IMG/VR virus record: IMGVR_UViG_3300032093_000013 | Source of the DNA: a virus | Length of the DNA stretch: 64,000 bases | Direction: 5' to 3' (one strand) | Shown here: positions 50,744 to 56,845 of the stretch, piece after piece | Numbering within the stretch: position 1 is the first letter of the stretch | Layout of the letters: the number at the start of each line of letters is the position of its first letter | Position numbers and translations under genes: made by a program | The notes under the pieces: generated by a model | Told to the model about the DNA's origin: nothing | The model's input: only the letters and a program-made list of their open reading frames with translations | Database searches by the model: none

Positions 50744-50916
50744 TCTTCCTTTCTTTCAGATAGAATAATATCATTACCATCTAAAGTAAAAGAAATCTCA
50801 GTATCTTCATACCAAGAAAGTTCATTCATAATCTCACCTGGAATTTTGATGTAATAATCACCGCTAACTGGATCAACCTCTATGGTCTCAAAAATTTCCC
50901 CGGAATTTTTTTTCAT
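50740..50916 (-). CDS. AbrB/MazE/SpoVT-like DNA-binding protein (58 aa)
   Basis: YYIKIPGEIMNELSWYEDTEISFTLDGNDIILS fits the swapped-hairpin pattern. Confidence 0.65.
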   Translation of the reverse strand: MKKNSGEIFETIEVDPVSGDYYIKIPGEIMNELSWYEDTEISFTLDGNDIILSERKED

Positions 50917-51113
50917 ATGTGTAAAACAAACAACCTTTTTCGTTTTTATATATGGCAAAAAAATTTTTAATCTTCAATGTAATAATTAGCTTGCTTCCGT
51001 AACACTTTGTAGGTTACAGGGACCCATCGATTTTATATACGGGGGTTTAACCTTTATAATATTATAACACGCCGCCCGACGGGGCGGGCATAAATCCCGG
51101 ACCCCTGCCAAAC

Positions 51114-51145
51114 ACGCACGAATGACTGCCGACGCACGAATGACT
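51114..51145. repeat. direct repeat ACGCACGAATGACT x2 (18-bp period)
   Basis: Copies at 51114-51127 and 51132-51145. Confidence 0.8.
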
Positions 51146-51411
51146 CAGAAGCGGGCAGCGAGCGGCGAATGACCCACCCGATTCAGCAGGCGGTCACGGG
51201 CAGCAGCGATACGGTCAGCACGTGCCTGCTCTGCAAAGCGGCGGGCGTTGGCGTCCTTATCACCGACCCATTGACGCCCCAACCCAACGACGGGGGTAAT
51301 GGTGAAGGCACGACCCGAACCAGCACTGCCATTCACGGGGCACGTGCCTTTCAGTGCGCCATCACCTTTGGCGATTTGTCCTTTGGTCTGGCGGGCGTTG
51401 GGGCGAAGCAT
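51145..51411 (-). CDS. early hypothetical protein (88 aa, GC-rich)
   Basis: MLRPNARQTKGQIAKG...; own TGcTACAAT promoter at 51435-51443. Confidence 0.65.
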   Translation of the reverse strand: MLRPNARQTKGQIAKGDGALKGTCPVNGSAGSGRAFTITPVVGLGRQWVGDKDANARRFAEQARADRIAAARDRLLNRVGHSPLAARF

Positions 51412-51451
51412 GGGGGTTGGTTGCGGTTGAGAGTATTGTAGCAGATCGGGG

Positions 51452-51640
51452 TCACCCCCACTGCGCCTGACGAACGTCGTTACGGTGTGCCTCAGCATAC
51501 TGGGCAGCGATGGTGGCAGCGGGCACTCCCCAGTGAATGTAGGGGGAAGGGCGGGAACCGTTCTTCAACTGGTCAGCGCGGGAGATCCATTTGATTTGGC
51601 GGGTCTCCAGGTCAGAGCACATGGCAAGGGGGAAACGCAT
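51452..51640 (-). CDS. early hypothetical protein (62 aa)
   Basis: MRFPLAMCSDLETRQIKW...; -10 TACACT at 51672-51677. Confidence 0.6.
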   Translation of the reverse strand: MRFPLAMCSDLETRQIKWISRADQLKNGSRPSPYIHWGVPAATIAAQYAEAHRNDVRQAQWG

Positions 51641-51716
51641 CGGTCGTCTGTCGGTTGCTTTGGTATGCCTTAGTGTAAACCCCCCACCCGCGACAGCAGG
51701 CAGGGGGTGTGCGATT

Positions 51717-51869
51717 TCAAAACTGGATTTCCTGCAGCGTGGCAGCATGGGCAAGAAAGTCAGCGATGTTCTCCTGTTCGACCTCAGCGGTCAGGGTCTC
51801 CAGAATCTCCAGGATCTGGGTGCCGTTGGCGCCACGGCGGAGCAGGGAGATGGCAAGGTCAGCGGTCAT
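51717..51869 (-). CDS. early hypothetical protein (50 aa)
   Basis: MTADLAISLLRRGANGTQILEILETL...; TGcTACAAT promoter at 51896-51904. Confidence 0.65.
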   Translation of the reverse strand: MTADLAISLLRRGANGTQILEILETLTAEVEQENIADFLAHAATLQEIQF

Positions 51870-51906
51870 GATGTCGGGGGGTGTGGGGTGAGAGTATTGT
51901 AGCAGG

Positions 51907-52068
51907 TCAGCGGGCGAACTGCGCCAGACTGCTGGGGGCAACGTGAGCAGGCGACCCACAGGACCGGTAGAAGTCTACCATACGCTCTGCCTCCTGCAGG
52001 GTGGGGAACCACTGCGAGCGCCACTCGGTGTGGTTGTAGGGGGTCTGGTAACGGACTTCGATTCTCAT
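51907..52068 (-). CDS. early hypothetical protein (53 aa)
   Basis: Manual: MRIEVRYQTPYNHTEWRSQWFPTLQEAERMVDFYRSCGSPAHVAPSSLAQFAR; -10 TAGAAT at 52092-52097. Confidence 0.7.
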   Translation of the reverse strand: MRIEVRYQTPYNHTEWRSQWFPTLQEAERMVDFYRSCGSPAHVAPSSLAQFAR

Positions 52069-52102
52069 GGGTCGGTTGCGGTTGTGAGAGAATTCTACAG
52101 GG

Positions 52103-52249
52103 TCAGCGGTCAGGGTCAGCGTTGCCGTGGGTCACCTTCACGAGTGGCACATATTCTACCGGGGAGTAGCGGGGTCCATGCATGAGCACCGCGCGGATCT
52201 GGTGACTGTTGCAACGGAGACTGTGAGTGTGGCGTTGCTGGCGGGACAT
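52103..52249 (-). CDS. early hypothetical protein (48 aa)
   Basis: Manual: MSRQQRHTHSLRCNSHQIRAVLMHGPRYSPVEYVPLVKVTHGNADPDR; TGcTACAAT at 52272-52280. Confidence 0.5.
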   Translation of the reverse strand: MSRQQRHTHSLRCNSHQIRAVLMHGPRYSPVEYVPLVKVTHGNADPDR

Positions 52250-52282
52250 CGTGACTCGGATGGGTGAGAGTATTGTAGCAGG

Positions 52283-52459
52283 TCAGGCGGCAACCAAAAC
52301 GTCGTTCTCCCAACGGGCAAAGCTCAGCACCTCATCATAGATACGGTCAGCGACCTGCTCAACGTGCTGGCGCTCTGCCTTCAGGATGGCAGCGCGGCAC
52401 TGGGCAGCAATCTCATCGATGGTATAGAGGGCGCGGTCGGTGGCGGGGTTGTAGCGCAT
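52283..52459 (-). CDS. early hypothetical protein (58 aa)
   Basis: Manual: MRYNPATDRALYTIDEIAAQCRAAILKAERQHVEQVADRIYDEVLSFARWENDVLVAA; -10 TACACT at 52484-52489. Confidence 0.7.
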   Translation of the reverse strand: MRYNPATDRALYTIDEIAAQCRAAILKAERQHVEQVADRIYDEVLSFARWENDVLVAA

Positions 52460-52538
52460 GGGTCGTTTGCGGTTGACTTGTTAAGTGTAAGGGGTCGGGT
52501 GGGGTCTCAGGGGGCAGGGTGTGCCACCTGGTGAATTG

Positions 52539-54866: not shown

Positions 54867-55016
54867 TCAGAACTCATCAAGACAGTGACGGGAAGTTTGA
54901 TTCAGACGAATGAGAATGTCATTCCAAAACTCTTTATCCTCATCATCATTGTATTGGTTGTTATCTTCAACCAAACGAATCAGATTGTTAAGATCGTCGG
55001 GAGTGAGATAGTTCAT
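54867..55016 (-). CDS. acidic microprotein (49 aa)
   Basis: Manual: MNYLTPDDLNNLIRLVEDNNQYNDDEDKEFWNDILIRLNQTSRHCLDEF. Confidence 0.65.
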   Translation of the reverse strand: MNYLTPDDLNNLIRLVEDNNQYNDDEDKEFWNDILIRLNQTSRHCLDEF

Positions 55017-55141
55017 CAGTAATCGTAGTTTGCGTTCAGGTACTCATTCACATCGAACTTCTCATCACGAAGTTCGGGAATGTCAAGGTCAAAGATTTCA
55101 CCAGGAGCATCTTGAATCTCAGACCAGAGTTCGTCAAACAT
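55016..55141 (-). CDS. acidic microprotein (41 aa)
   Basis: Manual: MFDELWSEIQDAPGEIFDLDIPELRDEKFDVNEYLNANYDY; own promoter at 55166-55225. Confidence 0.7.
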   Translation of the reverse strand: MFDELWSEIQDAPGEIFDLDIPELRDEKFDVNEYLNANYDY

Positions 55142-55232
55142 GGTTTGTCTCTCAGGGACGAATGTAATGTATCAGGGATCCTGGCGCACCACAACCCCCT
55201 GTGTGCCACTCTCTCAACTGGCACAAGGTTTC

Positions 55233-55367
55233 TTATACAAACTCCGCGAGATAGTAATCTAAAGGCAACTCAAGTTCTGCTGCTTTAGATTCCCATTCAT
55301 CCCATTCTTCCTGAGAAGCATCATTGAAGAAATCCTCACGAGAATATTCAAAAACAGGACCACACAT
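55233..55367 (-). CDS. acidic microprotein (44 aa)
   Basis: Manual: MCGPVFEYSREDFFNDASQEEWDEWESKAAELELPLDYYLAEFV; promoter TTGATA-17-TACATT. Confidence 0.7.
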   Translation of the reverse strand: MCGPVFEYSREDFFNDASQEEWDEWESKAAELELPLDYYLAEFV

Positions 55368-55452
55368 TCGAATTAATTGCGACAACGAAGGTAATGTAAA
55401 CCATCACGTGGCAGATATCAACCCCTACTGTGCCAGATTCTCAACTGTCCTC

Positions 55453-55482
55453 ATTCTCAATAACGAGGACCTTATTGAGAAT
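55453..55482. repeat. 11-8-11 inverted repeat site A
   Basis: ATTCTCAATAA-CGAGGACC-TTATTGAGAAT. Confidence 0.85.
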
Positions 55483-55506
55483 AGGTCCAATCTTTAAACT
55501 GCCACA

Positions 55507-55656
55507 TTACTTGAATGGATCGAGATGCATGATGGTAGAATGCACAGTCTCATCACCTTCGAGCTGCAATATTTCTGCCCATTCATATACATCTAGATCT
55601 AGATCATCATAACACTCTACATCTAGAATGATACGAACGTGTTGCTTATTATGCAT
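55507..55656 (-). CDS. acidic microprotein (49 aa)
   Basis: Manual: MHNKQHVRIILDVECYDDLDLDVYEWAEILQLEGDETVHSTIMHLDPFK. Confidence 0.6.
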   Translation of the reverse strand: MHNKQHVRIILDVECYDDLDLDVYEWAEILQLEGDETVHSTIMHLDPFK

Positions 55657-55789
55657 AATGACGATATGCTAGATCTTGATAATCATGCGAATCTCGTGCA
55701 TAATCATCATCTAGATCTAGTGTATAGTTCTCATCTAGATCTACATAATCATTCGTATACGTATAGTCGAAATCGTAATCGTCGTACAT
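55649..55789 (-). CDS. Asp/Tyr-rich microprotein (46 aa)
   Basis: MYDDYDFDYTYTNDYVDLDENYTLDLDDDYARDSHDYQDLAYRHYA; promoter TTGCAA-18-TACAAT upstream. Confidence 0.6.
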   Translation of the reverse strand: MYDDYDFDYTYTNDYVDLDENYTLDLDDDYARDSHDYQDLAYRHYA

Positions 55790-55792
55790 GAG

Positions 55793-55996
55793 CTCGTCGA
55801 GATTGTGTGATGTGACTTGTATATTGTAGCATAAGGCTCGTCGAGATTGCAATAGGTGTGTGCAGATCTCGACGAGATTCATACGATAATATATATGAAT
55901 CTAGAGCGTTCTAGACGAGTTCTGATGTGGATCTCGTAACAGAATGTCTCGACGAGATTCTATCATGCTTCTAGAAGAATGTCAAGTCTCGTCGAG
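55793..55996. repeat. array of five CTCGWCGAG palindromes
   Basis: Copies at 55793, 55837, 55868, 55948, 55988, plus degenerate CTAGACGAG at 55911. Confidence 0.85.
55957..55985 (-). promoter_or_regulatory. consensus sigma70 promoter
   Basis: TTGACA-17-TAGAAT with extended TG. Confidence 0.85.
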
Positions 55997-56034
55997 TTCT
56001 TGTGAGGGTCTGGGGATTTTTATGGGGGCGGGGG

Positions 56035-56063
56035 TTGACAAACTGCTCTTCTTATGATACGCT
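56035..56063 (+). promoter_or_regulatory. divergent sigma70 promoter with no downstream ORF
   Basis: TTGACA-17-TACGCT with extended TG. Confidence 0.65.
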
Positions 56064-56084
56064 CGCTAAGGTCACAAGTCCTGG

Positions 56085-56140
56085 AGGCATTAAACAAGAC
56101 TCAAAGGCATTAAACAAGACTCAGAGGCATTTATAAGACT
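56085..56140. repeat. 20-bp tandem repeat AGGCATTAAACAAGACTCA(A/G), about 3 copies
   Basis: Units at 56085, 56105, 56125 (last one degenerate). Confidence 0.85.
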
Positions 56141-56186
56141 TATAATCCTCTACATTTATTCTATTCTCAACAATAATACTCAATTG

Positions 56187-56216
56187 ATTCTCAATAATAT
56201 TCATCTTATTGAGAAT
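56187..56216. repeat. 11-8-11 inverted repeat site B
   Basis: ATTCTCAATAA-TATTCATC-TTATTGAGAAT; arms identical to site A. Confidence 0.85.
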
Positions 56217-56276
56217 GTTACAACAAACACATTTATATTTTTTAATACCTTTTTTAATTAAATTTAAGTTAAAACA

Positions 56277-56426
56277 CTATAAAACTGGCATAATCTCAGT
56301 ATTTTGGCATCCTTGAGTCTTTACATACTTCTCCCAATGAGTAGCATCTTCAATCGTATAGAAAACTGCGGTTTGCTTTGAGAATGCTTTCTTTTTGGGT
56401 TTCAGGTAGATGACTTGATACTTCAT
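56277..56426 (-). CDS. hypothetical protein (49 aa)
   Basis: Manual: MKYQVIYLKPKKKAFSKQTAVFYTIEDATHWEKYVKTQGCQNTEIMPVL. Confidence 0.65.
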   Translation of the reverse strand: MKYQVIYLKPKKKAFSKQTAVFYTIEDATHWEKYVKTQGCQNTEIMPVL

Positions 56427-56622
56427 AATAATACAAATTAATAGTTGGTCCGTCGTTCCAATGTCTTATGACCCCTGCGATAATGAATAGATTAGTAAGA
56501 AGATAAGTACCGAATATAACAGTCCGTATATGAGCAACGTGGTCTGATTCTCTGTCATTTTTACTTGCTTTCTCCCCAATCGCTTTTGCCCAGTATCTCC
56601 ACAGTGTTTTTCTTTTCTTCAT
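56350..56622 (-). CDS. hypothetical membrane protein
   Basis: WRYWAKAIGEKA...hydrophobic TVIFGTYLLTNLFIIAGVI...RHW. Confidence 0.65.
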   Translation of the reverse strand: MKKRKTLWRYWAKAIGEKASKNDRESDHVAHIRTVIFGTYLLTNLFIIAGVIRHWNDGPTINLYYYEVSSHLPETQKESILKANRSFLYD

Positions 56623-56845
56623 AGATAGACTCTCTTGATTTGATATAAGTCAGTTCTTTCCATTGATTATGATAACACAGGACCATCAAACGATCATTGC
56701 GATGAATGGAACATGCCTCATAGTTCTCTTCATTTTTTGGTTTGACCCCTATCTCAATCGTAATGTAGTCATTGTCCTTGAAATAGACCCATCCTTCAAT
56801 ATGAGGTTTCCACTTTACATAATGATTAACTTGTGGTTCATACAT
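56561..56845 (-). CDS. hypothetical protein
   Basis: YEPQVNHYVKW..EGWVYF...YITIEIG. Confidence 0.7.
   Translation of the reverse strand: MYEPQVNHYVKWKPHIEGWVYFKDNDYITIEIGVKPKNEENYEACSIHRNDRLMVLCYHNQWKELTYIKSRESIYEEKKNTVEILGKSDWGESK

Follow-up and report, generated by a model that had tools for sequence, protein, structure and literature searches.

Paired palindromes bordering an origin-like early unit of T4-like cyanophages: possible inverted twin sites for a metal regulator of the host's Fur family

The 64,000-nucleotide stretch of viral DNA considered here (the window; IMG/VR record IMGVR_UViG_3300032093_000013) comes from a T4-like cyanomyovirus, as shown by Pfam matches in the window to gp23, the large terminase, a neck protein, and gp6. 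Two palindromes of the form ATTCTCAATAA-N8-TTATTGAGAAT, designated sites A and B (Table 1), stand at the borders of a conserved early control unit in this genome. The leading reading, offered tentatively, is that A and B are twin inverted binding sites for a metal regulator of the Fur family supplied by the host, and that they border a unit with origin-like character. The evidence for this reading comes from the invariance of the palindrome arms among related phages, from the presence of the same palindrome on mobilizable elements of cyanobacteria, and from the identity of the arms with the core of a published Fur-family consensus.

A first-pass annotation of this DNA had described two identical-armed 11-8-11 sites with unequal spacers, and both are present where it placed them, with arms that are perfect 11-mers. 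They are still the only occurrences in the 64 kb when up to three mismatches are allowed; 100 dinucleotide-preserving shuffles gave 0 matches, and none is expected by chance. Site A begins 24 nt past the stop codon of gene Y; on its downstream side, 31 nt separate it from the −35 element of the next early promoter. Site B begins 60 nt past the stop of the open reading frame (ORF) at 56277-56426 and adjoins an AT-rich tract. Each site is accompanied by additional half-sites in direct orientation. The half-site next to A, TTGAGAAT, falls within the ACAG-N10-TGGCAC module of the next early promoter, and the two next to B, TTGAGTAT and TTGTTGAGAAT, begin 11 and 24 bp (start-to-start) beyond the coding-strand right arm; the second of these, on the minus strand, is the degenerate half-site at 56163 that the first pass had also reported, and it is real. 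Hairpins are predicted on both strands at A and B, with energies of −10.7 to −20.4 kcal/mol and z-scores of −1.7 to −4.1, and three of the 11 pairs in each stem are G-C.

Conservation of the palindrome among phages was assessed by scanning IMG/VR for the exact 22 arm bases, and the figures that follow refer to the matches listed. The expectation that relatives would keep the arms and vary the spacers was borne out, as the exact arm pattern occurs in at least 119 contigs with about 30 kinds of spacer (strands collapsed) that are 7 or 8 nt long. A relaxed scan of the listed loci together with the window recovered at least 142 perfect copies with an 8-nt spacer and at least 15 with a 7-nt spacer, along with imperfect copies; about 70% of copies are perfect. 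Changes in the arms of at least 50 variant copies are all one-sided, with 0 compensatory changes, and ATTCTCAATTA is the most frequent variant arm in the phage contigs. Positions 8-11, the inner arm bases next to the spacer, vary most, and the outer heptamers ATTCTCA and TGAGAAT are invariant. Because the variable positions are the inner ones, this heptamer pair is the conserved core of the site. A further TGAGAAT is found within 150 nt at 59 of the 96 unique sites, nearly always as a direct repeat of the neighboring arm at a start-to-start distance of 23-24 bp. As the perfect palindrome occurs only once or twice per contig of 117-175 kb, and always at one locus, it is locus-specific and not dispersed.

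The variability of the spacers takes a particular form. The spacer of site A is reverse-complemented between the window and a contig 88% identical to it (L006), and 40-nt flanks that are 100% identical can hold unrelated spacers, as with TATTATGC and CAAGATCC at a site in L019, L026, L073, and L074 that has the context ATTCTCAACTA-CAAGATCT-TATTG alongside. Spacer CAAGATCC resembles the spacer of an adjacent degenerate copy. These cases indicate that spacers are exchanged or inverted through the arms. The arms therefore act as short substrates for recombination or template switching, a side effect to be expected of any perfect palindrome.

The same palindrome is also found in cyanobacteria. When one genome per species was scanned for the exact pattern across 185,579 species, 48 stretches were recovered against an estimated chance expectation of about 0.03, and all 48 are cyanobacterial (45 from Nostoc and one each from Mojavia, Oscillatoria, and Moorena), with 13 copies in a single Nostoc flagelliforme genome. 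The Nostoc copies reside on plasmid-like mobilizable elements in which a nikA-like gene and a gene for a MobA/VirD2 relaxase with DUF3991 and Toprim domains are followed, after about 115 nt, by a palindrome, three ATAGCAGACATTTTG iterons, and a second palindrome 426 bp from the first, with a ParB gene further on. This palindrome-iteron region is a candidate oriV or oriT. No protein common to the Nostoc elements and the phage loci was detected, the hits being spurious and of low complexity only; likewise, the element proteins p166 and p189 were not found in five phage records. The occurrence of an identical palindrome on Nostoc elements that have no detected protein in common with the phages therefore points to a conserved host factor.

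Several other features of these cyanobacterial sequences were recorded. Downstream of the relaxase-Toprim gene, about 1.3 kb of the Nostoc elements is non-coding (L136 4638-5093 and 17 other loci), and repeated CAACTGGTAGC hairpins lie near the palindromes and iterons there; Rfam gave no family match in this region. A small ORF that ends in the left arm was rejected as a coding sequence, its substitutions being unlike those of a protein. In Oscillatoria sp. SIO1A7 (L167 4977-5066), two tandem units of 61 nt, each with a palindrome (spacers of 8 and 7 nt), immediately precede a promoter-like site and an ORF whose N-terminus resembles that of a transposase. In one cyanobacterial genome of 3.5 Mb (contig 1 of G084), ATTCTCAATTACTCTTGGTTAATGAGAAT is found at five places from 2.13 to 2.96 Mb in near-identical copies, which may be a dispersed family of hairpin repeats sharing the outer heptamers.

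Comparison of the arms with published regulatory sites points to a family of proteins for this role. Described boxes of the cyanobacterial Fur family include the FurA consensus and the 7-1-7 box of Zur (PMC4005646, PMC3323870, PMC10957091). For FurA of Anabaena PCC 7120, the consensus derived from footprints is AAATAAATTCTCAATAAAT, and among natural sites the highest scores go to those in the furA promoter, which carry ATTCTCAATAA and ATTCTCAATTA (PMC4005646). Zur is reported to bind the furA promoter. The palindrome arm ATTCTCAATAA agrees at 11 of 11 contiguous positions with the FurA consensus core, as it does with the site in the furA promoter. Its heptamer in the form TGAGAAT is one base different from the classical Fur/Zur heptamer TGATAAT. 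In cyanobacterial genomes, the 7-1-7 form TGAGAAT-N-ATTCTCA occurs in 39 of 401, against 7 of 401 for a reversed control; genomes of 1.7-2.6 Mb are among the 39. These boxes adjoin genes for ZnuA and its ABC ATPase, two CobW/COG0523 proteins, TonB, two porins, an M20 peptidase, and an Rrf2 regulator, a set in agreement with the published Zur regulon. The everted arrangement ATTCTCA-N15/16-TGAGAAT is likewise enriched, with 23 of 151 genomes compared with 7 for the control, and one chromosomal case of it consists of two full 7-1-7-like boxes side by side. Moreover, a picocyanobacterial genome of 1.7 Mb has an exact TTATTGAGAAT in the region upstream of its best Fur homologue, at a distance of 26 nt.

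No Fur-family gene was found in the window, in the phage loci searched, or in five related phage records, so that any Fur-family binder would be host-encoded. A conserved host protein is also the simplest account of the shared 11-mer, because the spacer is free, changes in the arms are not compensated, and the extra copies are phased with the helix. A search of the literature found no paper linking cyanophages with Fur or Zur boxes.

How such binding might operate can be outlined. Each palindrome would represent an inverted pair of core sequences of the Fur family (FurA for iron, Zur for zinc), with the heptamers ATTCTCA and TGAGAAT two helical turns apart and further direct copies at one or two turns. 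Dimers of metal-loaded host Fur or Zur would then occupy both borders of the early unit, possibly spreading to the extra copies, and would insulate the origin-like unit or road-block transcription into and out of it, so that the activity of the unit would be tied to the iron or zinc state of the host. Among the possible effects are the road-blocking of a plus-strand transcript and the stopping of read-through from the upstream genes; alternatives are spread onto the next early promoter and an architectural role at the origin. Both the binding of Fur or Zur at these sites and its consequences are inferred from the sequence. A broader proposal, which is distinctly doubtful, would have the palindrome as a cis-module shared by T4-like cyanophages and the mobilizable plasmids of Nostoc, where it would bracket origins and recruit a host Fur-family sensor as a boundary or licensing factor, thereby gating replication or early expression by iron or zinc.

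A number of observations weigh against a Fur-family binder. The canonical arrangement for this family is an inverted 7-1-7 or 19-bp box over a promoter. The heptamers at A and B are everted and 15-16 bp apart, with neither a full 7-1-7 box nor a partner heptamer on the outside. The sites overlap no −35 or −10 element, A being 31 nt upstream of the next −35 and B about 200 nt from promoter P1. Near-perfect palindromy, with about 70% of copies perfect, is stricter than is usual for Fur boxes and would suit a hairpin as well. In host genomes, the few everted sites that keep longer perfect arms have different inner bases, which also fits selection for a hairpin. The regions upstream of fur in picocyanobacteria of higher GC content, the likely type of host, contain no clear copy of the motif. 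Finally, the palindromes are dispensable for the core function of the unit, since the marine phage Sf-CH5 has the unit without them.

The segment that the palindromes enclose shows conservation of its own. The two are 690-840 bp apart in many contigs, and the first-pass proposal that they delimit a segment of about 700 bp holds, the segment being a conserved unit in many relatives. In an alignment of 22 distinct versions, most of them only about 60-68% identical overall to the window, long blocks that are 90-100% conserved lie between the palindromes, and conservation falls outside them. The order along the coding strand begins with the AT-rich tract, site B with its direct half-sites, tandem repeats of about 20 nt, the conserved core, and a C-run, and it continues with the two strong promoters P1 and P2, genes X and Y, a GTGCCA-type palindrome, site A, and the next early promoter.

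Table 1. Features of the palindrome-bordered early unit, with positions in the 64-kb window
Feature	Position	Strand	Description
Palindrome A	55453..55482	none	11-8-11; arms ATTCTCAATAA/TTATTGAGAAT, spacer CGAGGACC (plus strand)
Palindrome B	56187..56216	none	arms as in A, spacer TATTCATC (plus strand)
Extra direct half-site TTGAGAAT	55437..55444	−	just downstream of A on the coding strand
Two extra direct half-sites	56163..56183	−	TTGAGTAT at 56176-56183, TTGTTGAGAAT at 56163-56173
AT-rich tract	56225..56275	none	adjoins B; kept in freshwater relatives, S-SRM01, DSL-LC03, S-SKS1, and Sf-CH5
Three 20-nt tandem repeats	56074..56133	none	copy number and unit sequence differ among relatives
Conserved core	56035..56080	+	TTGACA-N17-TACGCT promoter-like site aimed at the repeats, palindrome B, and the AT tract
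Control region	55793..56005	−	P1, P2, and CTCGWCGAG palindromes over and between the promoters
P1	55985-55957	−	TTGACA-17-TAGAAT, 11/12 to consensus
P2	55852-55823	−	TTGCAA-18-TACAAT
Gene X	55649..55792	−	47 aa, very acidic, Asp/Tyr-rich; substitutions across relatives follow a coding pattern
Gene Y	55507..55656	−	49 aa, very acidic, phrog_12516
Next early promoter	55393..55421	−	TTGATA-17-TACATT with TGGCAC module before it; dispersed early promoter class

Within this unit, the core of about 46 nt combines its promoter-like site with CGCTAAGGTCACAAG; its identity is 85-87% in the marine phages Sf-CH5 and AG-345-L05, and S-SKS1 and DSL-LC03 have it as well. It is too conserved for a mere weak promoter, and a non-coding or primer RNA of the plus strand may have its 5′ end here and run through the tandem repeats into the AT tract. 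The CTCGWCGAG palindromes of the control region (up to four per repeat family when aligned, seven when counted by eye at 55793-56005) cover the start site of P1, fall inside the P2 spacer, and directly precede the gene X start codon. The relatives and S-SKS1 keep them, DSL-LC03 has DnaA boxes in their place, and they look like an operator array for a repressor. Because the conserved start of gene X is at 55792, its annotated ORF of 77 aa is probably too long. Genes X and Y are conserved from freshwater and marine cyanomyoviruses to S-SKS1, homologues of Y being found in S-SRM01, DSL-LC03, S-SKS1, S-T4, and Sf-CH5. The early promoter beyond site A belongs to a dispersed module composed of a GTGCCA-N10-TGGCACA inverted repeat, GGGG or CCCC, a −35 element, N17, and TACATT, which occurs in the window at 55180-55232 and 55408-55452 and in the flanks of many phage loci; the loop of its inverted repeat often has a TTGAGAA-like sequence.

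Isolate phages illustrate how the borders of the unit vary around a stable backbone. In the freshwater myovirus S-SRM01 the unit is present with an imperfect site B and, at A, a half-site only, which overlaps the stop codon of gene Y. Freshwater DSL-LC03 has a B-like site and copies of TTGAGAAT, flanked by seven TTTTCCACA motifs (record ~2150-2660) that we take to be the cyanobacterial DnaA box. The marine phage S-SKS1, which belongs to the genus Llyrvirus and not to the Kyanoviridae, shares the backbone of repeats, core, CTCGWCGAG palindromes, and genes X and Y. Its tandem repeats are six units of 22 nt at the corresponding place, two TGTGGATAA and one TGTGGAAAA, all DnaA-box-like, stand at the position of B (record ~860-935), and a different, unrelated long palindrome stands at that of A. 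The marine myovirus Sf-CH5 has the AT tract, the core, and both genes, with the palindromes absent. The unit is therefore old and widespread. The 11-8-11 palindromes are an addition in a freshwater lineage, and the arrays of sites are interchangeable between phages, consisting of Fur-like heptamers, CTCGWCGAG palindromes, or DnaA boxes.

These arrays bear on the function of the unit as well. The DnaA-box-like clusters at the homologous locus of DSL-LC03 and S-SKS1 suggest recruitment of host DnaA there; a cluster of DnaA boxes was found neither in the window nor among the at least 119 viral loci, and a literature search found no paper on DnaA-box clusters or recruitment of host DnaA at such a cyanophage locus. 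The boxes in the sister phages support an origin-like reading of the unit and do not prove it. Phased half-sites and an AT tract are present at B, and DnaA boxes lie at the same locus in S-SKS1 and DSL-LC03. At present the unit is the strongest candidate that cyanophages offer for an origin of replication or a center of early control.

Other explanations of the palindromes have to be weighed against a Fur-family binder, which ranks ahead of them. Next comes a structural role, which is possible and on balance unlikely, in which A and B would be hairpin or cruciform boundary elements that serve as signals for RNA 3′-end formation or processing, insulating the unit on both sides, or for priming or loading at single-stranded or supercoiled origin DNA, as ssi hairpins flank the origins of IncQ plasmids. 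The location of the sites past the stop codons of minus-strand genes (24 and 60 nt for A and B), the stem-loops predicted on both strands, and the freedom with which loops are flipped or replaced are all as stem-loops would allow. The few host sites with longer perfect arms and different inner bases, the Nostoc copies on either side of three iterons, downstream of a Toprim-domain relaxase, and the unrelated long palindrome at the site A position of S-SKS1 also favor such a role. Yet no U tract accompanies the sites and no terminator-like site is present in 54900-56700, and further points against it are the complete lack of compensatory changes among at least 50 variant copies, the conservation at fixed phasing of isolated half-sites that have no partner arm, and the retention of a half-site only at A in S-SRM01. 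An 11-mer that is identical from Nostoc plasmids to picocyanobacterial phages needs a reader of sequence beyond a fold. Such a reader could instead be an origin- or partition-type protein outside the Fur family, for which the palindromes would be iteron- or operator-like sites that license or delimit an origin, in the role that DnaA boxes have in the sister phages. This alternative ranks third and is unlikely. In keeping with it, the half-sites are phased at one and two helical turns, B abuts the conserved AT tract downstream of a conserved promoter aimed into it, the three DnaA boxes of S-SKS1 lie exactly at the B position, seven TTTTCCACA boxes flank the B-like site of DSL-LC03, and the Nostoc palindromes bracket iterons between relaxase and parB genes. 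However, no candidate protein was found, none being common to the Nostoc and phage loci; the neighboring phage ORFs have no DNA-binding family; the origin role of the locus is itself putative; and the identity with the Fur box would have to be an 11/11 coincidence.

Two further classes of explanation rank well below these three. The palindromes could be the hairpin ends, relic or active, of a small mobile element resembling IS200/IS605 or MITE/PATE, or the unit could be shuffled by cassettes of the PeSL type, which are stem-loops beside early promoters; this is improbable. That conservation stops at the palindromes, with flanks that differ between contigs, is consistent with mobility, as are the spacers swapped between otherwise identical contigs, the two tandem copies upstream of a transposase-like ORF in Oscillatoria, and the occurrence of a related hairpin five times in one genome. 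PeSLs of T4-like phages are stem-loops directly upstream of early promoters that cluster in series in variable regions (PMC2839356, PMC4122927), whereas the palindrome is present in one or two copies per contig of 117-175 kb, and no transposase lies in or near the unit. Because the unit is present without palindromes in Sf-CH5 and with other sites in S-SKS1, it is not a passenger of palindrome ends. Least probable are the sites for a tyrosine recombinase of the Xer/cer/dif kind that the first pass proposed, a proposal for which only the 11-8-11 geometry and the ATAA/TTAT inner bases speak. Its broader suggestion of sites for a dimeric protein stands to the extent that a symmetric or multimeric binder seems most likely; a recombinase does not fit the unequal spacers, the variable inner arms, or the lack of PF00589 in the phage relatives searched. 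Against E. coli dif, the two arms match at 5/11 and 7/11 positions. The 7/11 that the first pass counted between the right arm and that of E. coli XerD is correct as arithmetic and carries no weight, only the ATAA/TTAT inner bases being shared. The inner arm bases, where Xer enzymes cut, are the least conserved, the outer heptamers being the conserved core. Each phage has a pair of sites, at an early locus rich in promoters, and one Nostoc genome has 13, unlike the single dif. Tyrosine recombinases require matching central regions in the sites that they recombine. Spacers here differ in sequence within a genome (CGAGGACC versus TATTCATC) and in length, 7 or 8 nt, between relatives; since they are unequal, simple excision between A and B is excluded, as the first pass had argued. 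No PF00589 recombinase was found in S-SRM01 or DSL-LC03 (both complete) or in three contigs of 146-175 kb, a search of phage sequences only, whose control was positive in 14 of 14 genomes.

Two more functions were considered for the palindromes and rejected. As intrinsic terminators they would have stems with only three of 11 G-C pairs and no run of T on either strand, in a region (54900-56700) without a terminator-like site. The TTGAGA of the half-site is not read as the −35 element of a sigma-70 promoter, because no conserved −10 stands at 16-18 bp from any copy in the aligned relatives.

The major capsid protein of the phage is 82% identical to its counterpart in the freshwater Synechococcus phage S-SRM01, and megablast of the region against isolate phages returned no close DNA relative. 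All long ORFs of the window are on the minus strand, and the locus falls among very small genes of early type. For ten neighboring ORFs, PHROGs and Pfam gave families of unknown function only and no DNA-binding family; Rfam gave no family match across 50-64 kb of the window. A separate region at 50900-52500 has about 50% G+C, compared with 31-43% elsewhere in the phage, and its ORFs, on both strands, are all short and overlapping; Rfam gave no match in it.

What emerges is a compact non-coding unit whose conservation spans phage families, as it is kept in cyanomyoviruses of fresh and marine waters and also in S-SKS1, a very different phage. In addition, the exact 30-bp design around the iterons of Nostoc plasmids provides a second, genetically tractable system in which its function may be approached.

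Comparison with known systems places the palindromes among several kinds of element. They share with dif and cer the 11-(6 to 8)-11 layout, as 11-8-11 in the window and also as 11-7-11 in relatives, and differ from them in having no arm homology beyond ATAA/TTAT, multiple copies, constraint at the wrong positions, and no phage recombinase found. Like a PeSL, they form a stem-loop between small early genes, with a sigma-70-like early promoter alongside and variable sequence adjoining; PeSL stems are variable, however, whereas the arms of A and B are invariant and present in one or two copies per genome. Site A ends 31 nt before the −35 of the promoter at 55421-55393, and B has only a weak promoter-like match nearby. 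The true analogue of PeSLs in this phage lineage is the dispersed module of GTGCCA-N10-TGGCAC and promoter. Known origins include the IncQ oriV with ssiA and ssiB, oriLambda, and T4 oriF and oriG, in which a promoter is joined to an unwinding element. The unit resembles origins of the iteron type in its repeats, its AT tract, a promoter aimed into that tract, and palindromes on both sides, and the Nostoc elements place the palindromes around three iterons beside a relaxase-Toprim gene; it differs from them in that no candidate initiator was found and that Sf-CH5 lacks the palindromes.

The closest likeness in sequence is to the boxes of the Fur family. The arm equals the core of the FurA consensus, the heptamer is that of the 7-1-7 boxes near znuA, COG0523, and tonB genes, and the additional AT-rich copies alongside are reminiscent of the binding by several dimers that has been described for Fur. 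Fur boxes differ in their location before genes of metal homeostasis, the phage and plasmid sites being at the borders of origin-like units. Pho boxes and NtcA sites are familiar examples of host transcription factor sites on cyanophages, which sense the phosphate and nitrogen status of the host through borrowed PhoB and NtcA sites. HLR1/RpaB motifs have also been mentioned in cyanophage genomes (PMC6525291). The sites described here flank a non-coding control unit and not an auxiliary metabolic gene. If Fur or Zur does bind them, they would follow the same principle of a borrowed recognition sequence through which phage expression follows the nutrient state of the host, and iron or zinc, metals that often limit aquatic cyanobacteria, would be added to what a phage can sense.

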